From IMG/VR virus record IMGVR_UViG_3300045988_083604, positions 1 to 64,000 of that record: a DNA stretch of 64,000 nucleotides. The stretch is one strand, 5' to 3'. The position numbers were made by a program, and so were the translations under genes. Position 1 is the first letter of the stretch; each line of letters starts with the position of its first letter. Source of the DNA: a virus. Below are positions 3,062 to 14,857 of the stretch, piece after piece. Below the pieces are notes generated by a model. The model ran no database searches and was not told the origin of the DNA. It was given only the letters and a program-made list of their open reading frames with translations.

Positions 3062-3581
3062 TTTCTTAAAAGCTGTAAGTTTAAATGCTGTATTATATTA
3101 TGCAGATTACTTAAGTTTATATTATACTTCAATACCTGTAACAGATACGTGTAAATATTTTATAATTTATGGGACACCAGTGAATGCTGCATATATGGAT
3201 GGACATTCTCCTATATATGATGAAAATAATCAATATTATAAACAAGCATTAGACGAATTATATAACATTCAAGCTAAAACAGGTAGATCCGGTATGATTT
3301 CATTCTTACAAAATTTATGCAATGTATTTGCTAGAGGATGTGTTAATGGAGAACAAATGTTAGATTGTATATTATATTATAAATCAAAGCGTGAAAAGAA
3401 AGATGCTAGAGCCAAATATAAAAACTATGTATCTAATATACGATATGAGCTACAACAAGAAGAAGACGGCGAATTGTACACCGTAGAATGTACAAAATAT
3501 GTAAAACACAACGGTATCAAACCTAATTACGATGACTGCGAAAAAATTAATAGATTATTTAAAGGATCCTTAGATGATTAA
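3039..3581 (+). CDS. hypothetical protein, 180 aa
   Basis: ORF track; tightly packed in a co-oriented gene array. Confidence 0.6.
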   Translation: MYNMGTFDFLKAVSLNAVLYYADYLSLYYTSIPVTDTCKYFIIYGTPVNAAYMDGHSPIYDENNQYYKQALDELYNIQAKTGRSGMISFLQNLCNVFARGCVNGEQMLDCILYYKSKREKKDARAKYKNYVSNIRYELQQEEDGELYTVECTKYVKHNGIKPNYDDCEKINRLFKGSLDD

Positions 3582-3864: not shown

Positions 3865-4767
3865 TTGGATATGAGACTTATAAAATCTAATGTAGAACAA
3901 ATAAAACAGAAAAAAGGTTTATCCGGCATTAAAAAACAGATAGAAATAGCTGGTAGAACATGTTATAAATCTGAAGATAAAATAACAAATAAAAGCTGTG
4001 AAGAGTTTGTACAACGTATGATAAATTCAGGTCATACTGCGATGTTAGAGCATGGGACAGTATATTTAACAGTACCTGCAGAAGATGCAAACAATGGTTA
4101 TAAATATTCATTTAATAAGTATTCTAAAGTTAATTTTGACCCTACAGGTAAAGATACTAATATATACGTAACTACAAACTATAGAGTTATAACTGAAAAC
4201 AAGTGGGAAGATGACCTTAAATACCTTACAGAACCTACAAAAAACCACGAAAAACGTCTCACATTCCGTATAATATGTGATAGAATTACATCACAATCAA
4301 TAGTACGACACAGAGTTATGTCTTTCGCACAAGAATCTACAAGATATTGTAATTATGCCAAAGATAAATTCAACAGTGAGATAACATATGTAATTCCAAC
4401 ATGGTTAGAAGATAAATTACCAGAAGGTCAATATGTAGAATGGGATGGTGATTGGTGTGATATTGAAAAATTCACAATACAACATCATATTGACAACAGC
4501 GTTGAAAATGAATTTGTACAAACATTACAAAATTCAGAGTATTCATACATGTATTTCATAGAAAATGGATGGAAACCACAGCAAGCACGTAGTGTTCTCC
4601 CAAATGCCTTGAAAACAGAGATAATTGTAACTGGATTTATATCAGATTGGCTTAGATTTATAGCCATGAGAACAGCTCCAAATGCTCACCCAGACATACA
4701 AAAATTAGCAAATATAATATTGACAGATAAAGAGATTAAAAAGTATATAATAACAGATAAAAAATAA
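3865..4767 (+). CDS. thyX: FAD-dependent thymidylate synthase ThyX
   Basis: ThyX signature RHRxxSxxxxSxRY present as VRHRVMSFAQESTRY; probable ATG at 3871. Confidence 0.85.
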   Translation: MDMRLIKSNVEQIKQKKGLSGIKKQIEIAGRTCYKSEDKITNKSCEEFVQRMINSGHTAMLEHGTVYLTVPAEDANNGYKYSFNKYSKVNFDPTGKDTNIYVTTNYRVITENKWEDDLKYLTEPTKNHEKRLTFRIICDRITSQSIVRHRVMSFAQESTRYCNYAKDKFNSEITYVIPTWLEDKLPEGQYVEWDGDWCDIEKFTIQHHIDNSVENEFVQTLQNSEYSYMYFIENGWKPQQARSVLPNALKTEIIVTGFISDWLRFIAMRTAPNAHPDIQKLANIILTDKEIKKYIITDKK

Positions 4768-5268
4768 GATGAATAAAGTTATAAAACCATTAGGATATTG
4801 TAATAAAGTTACAGAAATTACAAGAGATAATATTAATAATATTGTTATAAATGCCTTAAACGTTTTAAAACATAAAACAAACAATAAATAATATGGGAGC
4901 GATAATTATAACGATAGTAAGTTGTATAGTATCATTTACAGTAGGTTATTTTATAGGCTATTGTGATGGTGTAAGATATTGAATTATGATAGAGAGTACA
5001 TTTCTCCTAGTAGGAGTTTTTATAGGGTATTATGCATGTTTAGTATTACATAAAGATAAATAATATATATGATCATCGGGGTTGACTTTGTCGATCTCGA
5101 TTTTTTTATGTCACTACGTTTGCACAATATAATTGAGAGTAAAAATTAAAAATTTTATTTTTTTTATTATAAGTGTGTAAAAATGTGAAACAGCAAATTT
5201 CAGACTCCCGTACCTGTTCTCGGAATGAAAGTGCCCGTATTGGGTTGCTATCCGTAAATGTGAATTTT

Positions 5269-5712
5269 ATGAAAAACGTTATTACTAAGGTCGTTGTAAA
5301 ATCGTTGGAGCTGTCGAAAACGGTAGATAATTCGTTGCAAGTCGAATGCGAGTCGTTAACGGACTTCGCAAATATGTCGGTAGAGGATATATTACTCTCT
5401 GGCGGTGTGCGCAAATATGTTTTTTTCTTAAAAAATTGTGCGGACAAGAAAGATATACTCACAACAGCATTAGTCAATAAGGACACGCACGTAATTGTAT
5501 ATACGTTCGATGTGTCGGAAATCGTAGTGGGTAAATCGTCCGTTAATGTTGTATCTGATGGAGAAGTGACTGGAACATATACGGCACTTACATATGTGTT
5601 GCCGTGTAAGGCTGATTTTCAACCATCGGAGCAAGATGTCGAAGGCGCAAAACAAGCGTTAACCGCACAAGTCGATAGACGTGTTGCAGCTGGTACGTAC
5701 GAACTTGTATGA
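5269..5712 (+). CDS. hypothetical protein, about 147 aa, GC-richer than neighbours
   Basis: ORF track 5173..5712, trimmed to the first ATG (MKNVITK); antisense shadow ORF 5106..5486; followed by a GAAA-loop hairpin at 5719..5745. Confidence 0.55.
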   Translation: MKNVITKVVVKSLELSKTVDNSLQVECESLTDFANMSVEDILLSGGVRKYVFFLKNCADKKDILTTALVNKDTHVIVYTFDVSEIVVGKSSVNVVSDGEVTGTYTALTYVLPCKADFQPSEQDVEGAKQALTAQVDRRVAAGTYELV

Positions 5713-6702
5713 CTTATTGGAGGGCAGTCGAAAGACTGTCTCTCCTTGCGTAATTAGTGTCACATTTGCCATTTACATAGAGAAATTCCTTCTTAATATA
5801 TAGCTTTTTACGAAACTTTATATAAATCCTGATTCAAACTTTAAATTCGGAATTATACATTCTGATGAGTTAACCGATGACGGTTGAGGTGAATACAACA
5901 CCAAGAACAGAAATAAATGTACAAGTATGTGTACGCTCACAAACATGCTTGATAAAGAGAGCTGGCAATACGGAAAGACGTATAAACTTGGTTAGTCATA
6001 TGGCCTGGTAAACCATATGCCGTCTTAATATAACTAAGGTTATATTGGTATGTAAGACGAAATGTTTTAACATCGCATTATATACATTGTATAGGTGTAC
6101 TGGAATGACATACCTGAGTCCAGTAGTCGGAATAGTTCCTGCAGATATTATTCTGTACTGATGTTATGTGTAATCGGGTGGTTACCGCACACTGATTACG
6201 ACGTTGTAGATGTACGACTACAATGTTTAATTAATTATGACAAGTCCTGAGCATGACTATAAACTGCTCATTTTTAATACATTTATGTTGTAATGTAGCC
6301 TTTGGCGGTTCCAAGCCCGCATGAGAAATACAGAGGACAACGAAACACACAGGTTTCACATCATAGTACACGTGATGTAAACGTATTGTATGTAAAAAGT
6401 ATCTAGTTCCTATCAGGCTTCTAAATGGAAAGGATATACATACAATACAGTGTACAATTCATAGTTAAATTATTAATTATGAAAGAAAGCCTGGTCATCC
6501 ACCGCAATGTCGAGAAGTGCGGTAGTAATAGAGCGACATCTGTTACGAACTATGTTCAACGGTCTACTTACGTTGTATGATAAGCATAGTTAGTACATTT
6601 TACCAGATGTACAATTCCAACTAAATTGGTCAATAGTTGTATGTCGCATAATCCCTGTAGGTGAGTAGACCACTTGCACTGCAGCTACAGGGATGTTTTA
6701 AA
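5713..6702 (+). ncRNA. ORF-free, helix-rich region of about 1 kb; candidate large structured RNA of unknown class
   Basis: No ORF of 60 aa or more on either strand. Many local hairpins (catatgg/ccatatg, accg-atga-cggt, ttgtag/ctacaa) and a long-range 7-bp pairing gtagtcg(6122-6128)/cgactac(6214-6220). Confidence 0.35.
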
Positions 6703-6780
6703 TGCCTCTTAGCTCAAAAGCCAGAGCCTCACAGATGTAATATCATGCGAGAGATGATGGTTCGAATCCATCAGAGGTAA
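6703..6780 (+). ncRNA. tRNA-like element with canonical acceptor, D and T arms but no 7-nt anticodon loop
   Basis: Acceptor tgcctct/agaggta (U1-A72); D arm gctc-aaaagcca-gagc; T arm gatgg-ttcgaat-ccatc. The 27 nt in between fold only into an irregular extended stem. Confidence 0.4.
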
Positions 6781-6801
6781 CTTCTTTTATAGGTTTAGTG
6801 T

Positions 6802-6840
6802 GAGGGTGAACTGTTCGTGAGAATCGTTCACTCTTATTTT
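6802..6840 (+). terminator. conserved-loop hairpin plus T-tract (family member 1)
   Basis: Stem gtgaac/gttcac, loop tgttcgtgagaatc, then tcttatttt. Confidence 0.55.
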
Positions 6841-7213
6841 ATTTAATACAGCTTGGGAGTTTATAAAATACAATAACATAAAATTAAAACATAATCAATA
6901 TGCGAGAAAAAGTAATAGAGTTTATTGTAGCTAATACGTCCTTTAGTTACGATGAACTTAAAACGTGGTCTAACAAAGAGTTAGATGACTTTATGGGACG
7001 TGCTTTTCCAGTAGAATATTAAAAAACATTATCAAGTATGAATAAATACAATCCTGAAGAACTAAGTGTTGCTATCAAAGCAGCACTTAATAAAGGTATC
7101 AAAGGAGAAAGAAATCGCAGAACATCTTAGTAGATATTTTGGAGTATTGATAACAGAAGCTAAATTTGGAGATCTTAAAGACTTCTCCGTTTTAGCATAT
7201 AAACCTGAAAACA

Positions 7214-7414: not shown

Positions 7415-7715
7415 GGTTATGAAAATGGAAACAAAATATCTTATTGTAGATACGATAGGACTTGTTCTTATTTTCTGTCTCTCACTAACTTCAGCAATTG
7501 CACAATGCTCAACTGAGCGTGATAACAAGCGATTAACTGAAATAATTGAAAGACAGAAAAAGCTTATTGAAAAATATAAGCAGTTTGAAGATATATCTGT
7601 ACAAATCTACATTAACCAAGTAGATAGTACAGGTGATACATTCGATAGCTCGGACAATGGAGTGTTATTTTGGAACACTCTATCGGAAATCGATAGTCTA
7701 AGAAACTTAAAGTAG
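7404..7715 (+). CDS. small membrane-anchored protein, 103 aa; terminates at TAG
   Basis: ORF track; N-terminal hydrophobic segment; overlaps the previous ORF. Confidence 0.5.
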   Translation: MKNKVMKMETKYLIVDTIGLVLIFCLSLTSAIAQCSTERDNKRLTEIIERQKKLIEKYKQFEDISVQIYINQVDSTGDTFDSSDNGVLFWNTLSEIDSLRNLK

Positions 7716-7750
7716 TTCCATATCATTTACATTTTAAAATTAGACAAGGG

Positions 7751-7780
7751 CTCTACGGTTCGTGAGAATAGTAGAGTTTT
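7751..7780 (+). terminator. conserved-loop hairpin plus T-tract (family member 2)
   Basis: Stem ctctac/gtagag, loop ggttcgtgagaata, then tttt. Confidence 0.6.
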
Positions 7781-7921
7781 AACCATTACTGATGAGTCTT
7801 TGAAAATTAAGACGAAACACGAAAGTGTCTAATGGAGCCATATTTAGAATTTTGACTGTAATTCCTTTGTGTAATATCAAAGGGAACAATACTGGTCTGT
7901 GAAGATAGGTATTGTTTTTAT

Positions 7922-7992
7922 TGGACTATGGTGTAATGGGAACACAACAGTTTTTGGCGCTGTTGTTCCAGGTTCGAATCCTGGTAGTCCAA
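7922..7992 (+). tRNA. tRNA-Gln(UUG)
   Basis: Hand-folded cloverleaf: acceptor tggacta/tagtcca (U1-A72), D arm gtgt-aatggga-acac, anticodon arm acagt-ttTTGgc-gctgt, T arm ccagg-ttcgaat-cctgg; no encoded CCA. Confidence 0.85.
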
Positions 7993-8062
7993 CTAATAAC
8001 GATATAGGCAGAGTCAGCAATGCTATGCAATTTGTTTTTAATTGTTTATATTTATTAATTTT

Positions 8063-8092
8063 CTACACGATTCGTAAGAATAGTGTAGTTTT
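8063..8092 (+). terminator. conserved-loop hairpin plus T-tract (family member 3)
   Basis: Stem ctacac/gtgtag, loop gattcgtaagaata, then tttt. Confidence 0.6.
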
Positions 8093-14467: not shown

Positions 14468-14664
14468 GAACATTATCATAACAACATATTTAGTATATTA
14501 AACAGATATATCGAATCATATTACTACGAAGATTAAGAGTAGCTAACTTATGATTCAAAGTATATGCTGAGACAAACATTCTGTTTAATCTACCTAAGTA
14601 TATAGAATCTGATCAATTCTATATACTACAAAATGAAATCGTTTGAGTATGAGTTAATTATGTA

Positions 14665-14693
14665 GGACGAGGGTTCGAATCCCTCCACGTCCA
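14665..14693 (+). ncRNA. acceptor/T-arm minihelix (tRNA top-half mimic)
   Basis: ggacg-aggg-ttcgaat-ccct-cca-cgtcc-a; no matching distal 5' acceptor strand found upstream. Confidence 0.35.
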
Positions 14694-14857
14694 CTCTTGT
14701 TTATATATAAGGGCGTGACCGGTTTTGACTGCATAAGGAAGTAAATACGAGATTTCAGAAATCGATAAATCAGAACAATAACATTGTTGACTATACTCAC
14801 GTAGCGTGAGTATGAGTCCTGACAATTCCTTGAGTCAGTTGGAAAAATAGGATGGTT

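Follow-up and report, generated by a model that had tools for sequence, protein, structure and literature searches.

The subject of this analysis is an open reading frame (ORF)-free kilobase, and the tRNA-like element that ends it, at positions 5713 to 6780 of IMG/VR virus record IMGVR_UViG_3300045988_083604. We analyzed the first 64,000 nucleotides (nt) of this record, referred to here as the window. The kilobase is a modular cluster of RNA genes and not a single noncoding RNA (ncRNA). Its most valuable component is not the tRNA-like element but an uncatalogued RNA family together with the interchangeable processing modules around it. The RNA occupies ~6383-6692 and belongs to a predicted pseudoknotted family that is supported by covariation and absent from Rfam 15. 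Its parts in the window are as follows.

6383-6448, plus strand: 5′ domain of the conserved RNA, in which helix P1 (6383-6394 with 6437-6448) encloses a loop (6395-6436)
6412-6495, plus strand: long-range pseudoknot helix, in which AUCAGGCUU of the P1 loop (6412-6420) pairs with AAGCCUGGU (6487-6495)
6487-6692, plus strand: 3′ domain of the conserved RNA, with six hairpins, including GUAAUAGAG-CGAC-AUCUGUUAC of invariant sequence

To gather copies of the RNA, which is ~310 nt long in the window, we scanned viral and metagenome collections for patterns and then ran an nhmmer profile search (E value of the match, 7e-69). We obtained 14 distinct copies of about 310 to 450 nt, every one of which came from a crAss-like phage genome or metagenome contig of the Suoliviridae type. 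The window sequence 3′ of a twister ribozyme (described below) aligned with phages cr273_1 and cr130_1 across ~300 nt, including a 35-nt block that was 100% identical. Three GenBank phage records contain the RNA, which is unannotated there. No Rfam 15 family overlapped the RNA in the seven loci scanned at permissive thresholds (the window and six others). A scan of window positions 5600 to 6900 with E values up to 10 returned no group I intron, RNase P RNA, GOLLD, ROOL, hepatitis delta virus (HDV)-like, hatchet, or pistol match, and literature searches returned no description of this RNA family.

RNAalifold predicted nine helices in the conserved RNA, and 96.8% of the cells over these helices were paired. 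Sixteen pairs were changed on both sides, compared with 6.6 ± 1.6 in column shuffles (0 of 500) and 1 to 7 in slid controls. The pseudoknot helix (helix 2) has nine pairs, three of them changed on both sides, and was 100% paired; the variable insert between its strands ranges from 50 to 200 nt in relatives. Single-sequence folding gave this helix a probability of zero, an indication of how limited thermodynamic folding is here. RNAalifold overlooked the long P1 helix bordering the most conserved block. The flanks of P1 comprise eight different stem sequences, and matched flanks had a mean pairing energy of -16.7 kcal/mol, versus -6.8 ± 3.1 kcal/mol for cross-clade combinations. Because the flanks pair, the conserved block at 6395-6436 becomes a loop of ~42 nt that caps P1; it is nearly invariant (block 1, 6399-6433) and 42 to 45 nt long across the family. 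The terminal hairpin (6653-6692) carries a conserved loop, GUGAG..CACUUGCA, followed by GAUGUUUU. A palindromic hexamer lies in this loop (window positions 6680-6685), reading CUGCAG in the window, UCUAGA in 12 copies, and UCUAGG in one (L034). The palindrome is kept despite the change in sequence, which could reflect loop-loop dimerization.

Conserved blocks of this kind might act as DNA, for example as a replication origin, a packaging site, or a protein-binding array. The region does lie in the replication and nucleotide-metabolism arm of the genome, 3′ of thyX, and some of the helices are invariant in sequence. However, G-U pairs are tolerated on the plus strand only, the long-range and pseudoknot helices carry compensatory changes, and the element has predicted self-cleaving ribozymes next to it on the same strand. 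Moreover, the GC-skew turning points fall at ~1.5 kb and ~36 kb, away from the RNA locus, and on this ground a replication origin at the locus was rejected. We consider a DNA-level function very unlikely.

The window is 100% identical to ENA contig ERZ1690186 NODE_42 (99,111 bp) and has a GC content of 32%. Among deposited phages, only cr273_1, cr130_1, and cr272_1 (crAss-like; Suoliviridae, Oafivirinae) are related to it at the DNA level. We concluded that the genome hosting the RNA cluster is that of a Suoliviridae-type crAss-like gut phage. Around the conserved RNA, we distinguished the following features.

3865-4767: thyX, the flavin-dependent thymidylate synthase gene, upstream of the region and likewise upstream in cr130_1
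5269-5712, plus strand: upstream ORF of 147 amino acids, with no family match, ~500 nt 3′ of thyX
5713-6286, plus strand: structured noncoding stretch, present only in this genome
6287-6341, plus strand: minimal type P1 twister ribozyme without P3, predicted to self-cleave
6703-6780, plus strand: tRNA-shaped RNA of 78 nt with a non-decoding arm
~6796-6841, plus strand: terminator-like hairpin with an inner UUC-GUGA-GAA mini-stem, a GNRA loop, and a U-rich tail
6845-6874, plus strand: RAGATH-1-like 5′ hairpin and UAUAAAAU, with no hammerhead behind it

An initial annotation of this DNA, made from the sequence, had described about 1 kb with no ORF and with dense secondary structure after the gene at 5269-5712. 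Both descriptions were borne out. Each of the six frames of 5713-6702 contains TAA, TAG, and TGA stops, and the gene calls of the source contig place nothing in window positions 5713-6899. With the standard code, the longest open stretch in 5713-6702 has 75 codons; with any one stop read through, it has at most 173 (the value for TAA). We therefore rejected protein coding under an alternative code: no long ORF opens up when TGA, TAG, or TAA is read through, and whichever stop codon is reassigned, 5713-6899 lacks a plausible ORF. Between ~1.6 and 19 kb, every ORF of at least 90 amino acids that is not nested in a longer plus-strand ORF lies on the plus strand. An omega-RNA reading was weighed because RAGATH-18 is the guide of an IS607 TnpB (PMC13565253). 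We rejected an omega-RNA/TnpB guide, as there is no TnpB- or IscB-sized ORF nearby and none of the nine neighboring ORFs scanned matched such a protein in PHROGs.

As for structure, the minimum free energy (MFE) z-score relative to dinucleotide shuffles was -4.47 over 5713-6286 and -5.76 over 6287-6702, and 0 of 100 shuffles reached the native stability. A long-range helix, gtagtcg/cgactac, had also been proposed and did not hold up: the two words (6123-6129 and 6215-6221) are complementary, but their pair probability is ~0.009, and 7-bp complements occur at chance level (59 observed versus 47.5 ± 8.6 in shuffles). A hairpin at 5719-5745 directly follows the stop codon of the upstream ORF. We rejected a hidden hammerhead at CUGAUGAG (5866), where the C-GAAA core is absent and no Rfam match was found.

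A permissive Rfam scan identified the twister (RF03160; 44.3 bits; E value, 3e-8). P3 is an optional helix of the twister. It is because P3 is absent, with 4 to 5 nt standing in for it, that the score falls below the RF03160 gathering score of 67.2. All highly conserved core nucleotides of RF03160 align in 6287-6341. Type P1 twisters were reportedly described by Roth and colleagues in 2014. The window copy shares with them the core elements UAA, GC, a GGU(C/U)CCAAGCCCG loop, AAA, and GAGG, the nested arrangement of P1 (6287-6290/6338-6341), P2 (6294-6297/6329-6332), and P4 (GCG/CGC with loop GUUCCAAGCC), and a predicted cleavage site at the 5′ end. Unlike a typical type P1 twister, it has, in addition to the missing P3 and the low score, a GAGGA/GUUCC pair where the Rfam consensus has GAGGG/GUCCC. 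The variant pair looks compensatory for the T1 tertiary pair, which it would keep by a change from G-C to A-U if the T1 partners are, as we assume, those of the twister crystal structures. The same P3-less twister is present at the same relative position in cr273_1, where P1 is wholly different yet complementary, and the P3-less form also occurs in four unrelated viral contigs. Over six twisters, P1 and P2 covary, P1 with five complementary sequences and P2 as UGUA/UACA or UGCA/UGCA. We concluded that 6287-6341 is a new member, and a P3-less variant, of the known twister class, with predicted activity. Cleavage is predicted between U6291 and A6292; at this 5′ position, it would leave the ribozyme on the downstream product.

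The strong structure of both halves of 5713-6780, and the fact that no terminator-like site was called within the stretch, would suit a single ncRNA of ~1 kb with the tRNA-like element as its integral 3′ domain. However, the 5′ 570 nt had no homologue in any fetched locus, including the 13 other loci that carry the conserved RNA, and twister cleavage would split it at 6291/6292. In addition, the closest relative of the window carries the tRNA-like element and its terminator without the remainder (see below). A single ~1-kb ncRNA is accordingly most improbable. Most of its 5′ half, 5713-6286, is probably a 3′ untranslated region that leaves with the upstream mRNA upon twister cleavage.

The tRNA-like element had been described in the initial annotation as 78 nt with acceptor, D, and T arms, and a cloverleaf is indeed the MFE structure of 6703-6780 (-24.4 kcal/mol; z-score, -3.0). 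The acceptor stem has 7 bp (including U1-A72 and G2-U71), the D stem has 4 bp with an 8-nt loop, and the T stem has 5 bp with the loop UUCGAAU. At the anticodon position, 24 nt fold into an irregular helix of 9 bp that contains a bulge and a mismatch, and no register gives a 5-bp anticodon stem together with a 7-nt loop and U33. The claim that a regular anticodon arm is missing and that an irregular helix replaces it was thus confirmed; the 6-nt loop assigned to that helix was not, the loop being 3 to 5 nt and ambiguous in size. By direct reading, the D loop, AAAAGCCA, has a C where the elbow G19 belongs. The discriminator is A, and CCA is not encoded. We obtained no standard tRNA prediction: ARAGORN made no call at 6703-6780, although the Rfam tRNA model (RF00005) scored the element at 39.7 bits, above its gathering score of 29.

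This Rfam score would be expected of a real tRNA, whether decoding or suppressor, whose anticodon arm is unusual or expanded, in which case the fold proposed here would be wrong. Related phages do carry suppressor tRNA-CTA, and ARAGORN reports odd anticodon loops there, such as a 4-nt one in L037. Yet the program, which reports odd loops and introns elsewhere, reports nothing here; the register with a 5-bp stem, a 7-nt loop, and U33 does not exist, the D loop lacks G19, and the element is dissimilar to the Gln or Sup tRNAs of relatives. A decoding tRNA is therefore extremely unlikely. We concluded that 6703-6780, as modeled, is tRNA-shaped but unable to decode. Two possible sources were also rejected. 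A decayed suppressor or Gln tRNA was dismissed on alignment with the Sup-CTA and Gln tRNAs of relatives, which had only the universal T loop in common with the element. A copy of a host tRNA or an attP site was dismissed after two scans of species-representative genomes, one without a match and the other with one non-tRNA match; no host tRNA in these scans shared the 3′ half of the element.

The closest relative of the window is IMG/VR contig 3300045988_062669 (L014/L046), with flanks that are ~93% identical. It has unrelated sequence in place of window positions 5192-6695, which in the window take in the ORF, the structured 5′ stretch, the twister, and the conserved RNA. The unit retained in L046 begins at UUUUAAA before the tRNA-like element and stops at the end of the terminator, so that the tRNA-like element and the terminator form a cassette of ~145 nt (6696-6839) common to both genomes. 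Since L046 keeps the cassette without the twister and the RNA, the cassette is independent and does not belong specifically to the conserved RNA. In the body of the element, which runs from the D stem through the 3′ acceptor strand, the two copies have one difference (position 9), and the 27-nt odd arm is identical. The spacer and terminator (~67 nt) have ~8 changes. Three further changes in L046 disrupt pairs 1-72 and 2-71, and that copy scores 25.8 bits with RF00005, below the gathering score. Conservation in relatives is therefore partial: the element is kept in one relative, and its acceptor stem is damaged there. Three pattern scans of viral contigs and a thyX-anchored locus search for further copies gave only L014/L046, and the species-representative genomes yielded no additional copy. 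In L014, a direct repeat, GCUGUGUCAGGCG(G)CUAAUUUA.A.UCU.CG, borders the cassette (1569-1607 and 1983-2015). It is absent from the window and could be a promoter or a recombination scar.

These comparisons bear on whether the tRNA-like element is merely the functionless remnant of a decaying tRNA gene, carried along with its terminator during cassette exchange in a variable region. A remnant would account for the lack of an ARAGORN call, the loss of G19 and of the anticodon loop, the two lost top acceptor pairs and sub-threshold score of the L046 copy, the restriction of the element to two genomes, and the failure of two scans of species-representative genomes to find a matching tRNA. On the other hand, the body of >60 nt and the odd 27-nt arm differ at one position while the flanking coding DNA differs by ~7 to 8%. 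The spacer and hairpin diverge more, and a neutral remnant ought not to be the best-conserved stretch. The cloverleaf is also still the MFE structure. We regard a remnant as unlikely, although the idea deserves some weight.

The hairpin that had been noted immediately after the element is real (-20 kcal/mol; z-score, -4.5) and is directly followed by UUAUUUUAUUU. Its loop motif, TTCGTGAGAAT, has exact copies in the 64 kb only at 6814, 7759, and 8071 (as TTCGTAAGAAT), and exact recurrences of the motif UUCGUGAGAAU in the loop are confined to 7759 and 8071. Three plus-strand hairpins (6803-6833, 7750-7778, and 8063-8090) have covarying stems, a common loop, (G/A)UUCGU(G/A)AGAAU, and a U-run behind them; two of the three come after the tRNA-like element and after tRNA-Gln.

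The slot downstream of the conserved RNA is occupied by a hammerhead in six relatives and by the tRNA-like module in the window. In these relatives (L019, L020, L021, L024, L027, and L036), a RAGATH-1 hammerhead lies 10 to 70 nt 3′ of the RNA; RAGATH-1 hammerheads are also found upstream of the RNA in L024 and L015. In the remaining copies, the RNA is followed by another conserved structured element, with UGACAAC and a hairpin with the loop RAAUAGA. None of the 13 other copies has a tRNA-like element 3′ of the RNA. A MAFFT alignment suggested homology between the tRNA-like element and the relatives' element downstream of the RNA, which we rejected (local score of 18, versus 17.2 ± 3.1 for shuffles).

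The full RAGATH-1 unit that adjoins the RNA in relatives consists of a hairpin, UAUAAAAU, and a type I hammerhead core. The core is missing from window positions 6845-6874 (RF03152; 18.8 bits; E value, 3.6), where the hairpin lies 30 nt upstream of an ATG at 6900. These positions mark the site at which relatives carry a full RAGATH-1 hammerhead. Given the order RNA, tRNA-like element, terminator, and RAGATH-1-type hairpin, the tRNA-like element and terminator appear to have been inserted between the RNA and the RAGATH-1 site. The arrangement also hints that the 5′ hairpin part of RAGATH-1 is a gene-start signal (a promoter or leader) separable from the ribozyme.

Other conserved sequences border the RNA in relatives. 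A motif, UUAGUCGUUCC.UAC..GGAGACAUCUUAUA..U.CGCAAUGAAA, occurs in L002 (~2870-2935 and ~3385-3450) and 3′ of the RNA in L015, L017, L032, and L034, and in cr130_1 it lies on either side of the RNA. Behind it come a long hairpin and the UGACAAC-stem-RAAUAGA-stem element, which covaries with cr273_1; this unit is a further structured element that is uncatalogued. In L015 (~455-570), L017, L019, L024, L027, and L037, the twister is replaced, upstream of the RNA, by a conserved module of ~115 nt (AAUGGUGAAACGUACCUAAAUAGGUUAGGAGAGACCAGAAAUUAUCUUGAAG...GGGAUGAUGAGCG...). We rejected the 5′ module of L015-type relatives (GGUGAAACGUACC...GAUGAUGAGCG) as a hammerhead; it has hammerhead-like words, no canonical core by inspection, and no Rfam match.

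We favor, with moderate confidence, a reading in which the kilobase is a modular RNA island, transcribed from the plus strand with its neighbors and cut into separate RNAs by the twister and RNase P. One plus-strand transcript would span the region and the adjacent genes. The twister would cut it between U6291 and A6292 and so free the upstream mRNA with a structured tail of 570 nt. The downstream product would begin with a 5′-OH end, keep the twister fold, and carry the conserved RNA as functional cargo. Host RNase P, if it accepts the tRNA-shaped module, would cut at 6702/6703. The terminal hairpin of the conserved RNA is separated from the tRNA-like element by a gap of 10 nt; with the structured RNA ending so close upstream, this cut, if it occurs, would define the 3′ end of the RNA. 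The predicted products are an RNA of ~410 nt and a small tRNA mimic extending to the GNRA-loop terminator.

The initial annotation had read the whole kilobase as a processed ncRNA with a tRNA-like 3′ module. The noncoding, RNA-rich character of the region and the non-decoding tRNA shape stand; the notion of one 1-kb ncRNA with a dedicated 3′ module does not. The annotation named neither the twister nor the conserved RNA, which are the main content of the region. Its suggestion of a processing handle survives in part, as the RNA ends just upstream of the element and relatives have a hammerhead in the same slot, but the cassette is separable and accompanies no other copy of the RNA.

Several observations weigh against the processing scheme that we favor. 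The twister lies 5′ of the conserved RNA in only 3 of the 14 loci (the window, cr273_1, and L020), the L020 copy appears degenerate, and the window copy scores below the Rfam gathering threshold. RAGATH-1 hammerheads are common in these genomes (two or three per ~10-kb locus) and may belong to the starts of downstream genes rather than to the RNA; the window itself retains the RAGATH-1 hairpin without the ribozyme. A hairpin and U-run directly precede the tRNA-like element in both genomes that have it, and these could end transcription first. The missing G19 weakens the elbow. Together with the two broken top acceptor pairs and the low score in L046, this makes recognition by RNase P uncertain. 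Finally, the tRNA-like element is confined to two genomes, the window and L014/L046.

A more ambitious proposal is that the conserved RNA is a new class of ornate phage RNA released by ribozymes or RNase P and that the tRNA mimic is no relic but an active counter-defense decoy that engages nucleases targeting tRNAs, or else a sponge that takes up tRNA-binding factors. We put this forward tentatively and think it rather improbable. If the RNA is released with 5′-OH and cyclic-phosphate ends, RtcB could join these into a circle. Alternatively, by analogy with ROOL and GOLLD, the conserved RNA could self-assemble, and the palindromic loop hexamers (UCUAGA in relatives and CUGCAG in the window) hint at possible dimerization.

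Additional RNA elements were found elsewhere in the window and in relatives. A permuted (two-piece) transfer-messenger RNA (tmRNA) lies at window positions 14634-14809 on the plus strand (RF04321; 63 bits, above the gathering score of 47; no ARAGORN call). It has syntenic copies in L015, L027, and L031, ~8 to 9 kb 3′ of the conserved RNA. A type I hammerhead at 7783-7835, plus strand, has a canonical core, CUGAUGAG...CGAAAC...GUC (Hammerhead_1; 24.3 bits, below the gathering score of 34) and lies 85 nt upstream of tRNA-Gln(UUG) (7922-7993). The same arrangement occurs in L046 and suggests that a ribozyme may trim the tRNA precursor. Sub-threshold matches to Prevotella-2 RNA (RF03043; 33 to 35 bits) are found at 7680-7797 on the plus strand of the window and at 9315-9429 in L046. 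The match, whose 3′ hairpin is the same GUGA-loop hairpin, extends at its 3′ end into the CUGAUGAG of the hammerhead; in crAss phages, Prevotella-2 may be a leader located ahead of hammerheads. L004 (5850-5965, minus strand) has, in a phage tRNA cluster, a twister with a large insertion at the P5 position that holds a T-arm-like hairpin (GGAUGGGUUCGAUUCCCAUC). ARAGORN called a tRNA with a four-base anticodon (AUAA) in L037 (13680-13752, plus strand), beside a suppressor tRNA-CUA, and a tRNA with an undetermined anticodon in L007 (9413-9496, plus strand), overlapping a tmRNA call. Suppressor tRNA-CUA genes are also present in L008 (cr273_1) and L021.

Few viruses of the mammalian gut are as abundant as crAss-like phages, and to our knowledge their noncoding content is almost unannotated. 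Here, one phage subfamily carries an uncatalogued pseudoknotted RNA amid self-cleaving ribozymes, tRNAs, and a permuted tmRNA. The role of twister and hammerhead ribozymes in phages is, as far as we know, unsettled; in these genomes, they appear to delimit noncoding cargo in polycistronic transcripts. The downstream slot offers a natural comparison, being filled by a hammerhead in some genomes and by a tRNA-shaped module in this one.

RAGATH motifs (such as RAGATH-1, RF03152) and the large phage-borne structured RNAs GOLLD and ROOL occur beside ribozymes and tRNAs. The conserved RNA resembles these families in context only, as a structured phage RNA among twister and hammerhead ribozymes, tRNAs, and tmRNA. 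It matches none of the Rfam 15 models of GOLLD, ROOL, or the RAGATH families and is smaller, at about 310 to 450 nt; its hallmark relative to them is a conserved hairpin loop of 42 to 45 nt that forms a pseudoknot. Theta ribozymes, which are minimal HDV-like ribozymes found beside gut-phage tRNAs, process tRNA-containing transcripts in Caudoviricetes phages of Bacteroidota (PMC10879173). They set a precedent for phage tRNA transcripts being processed with the help of ribozymes, but they are of another ribozyme class and lie directly 3′ of real tRNAs, and no HDV-like match follows window position 6780.

For the tRNA-like element, two comparisons are relevant. T4 stable RNAs C and D are small phage RNAs that are encoded in a tRNA cluster and processed by the tRNA maturation machinery. 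Like these and other non-tRNA substrates of RNase P, the window element is a small phage-encoded RNA in a tRNA-rich region; unlike it, RNAs C and D do not form a full cloverleaf in which the anticodon arm is substituted, and there is no sequence relationship. In the MALAT1-mascRNA and MEN-beta systems (RF01684), an RNase P cut makes the 3′ end of the upstream RNA and frees a tRNA mimic. The window likewise has a tRNA shape without a proper anticodon loop directly 3′ of a structured ncRNA, with a predicted RNase P cut. In contrast to mascRNA, which is eukaryotic and with which no homology is implied, the phage module is separable from the upstream RNA, as L046 shows, and not obligatory. If RNase P does cut the module, the arrangement would be a bacterial-virus analogue of MALAT1-mascRNA.

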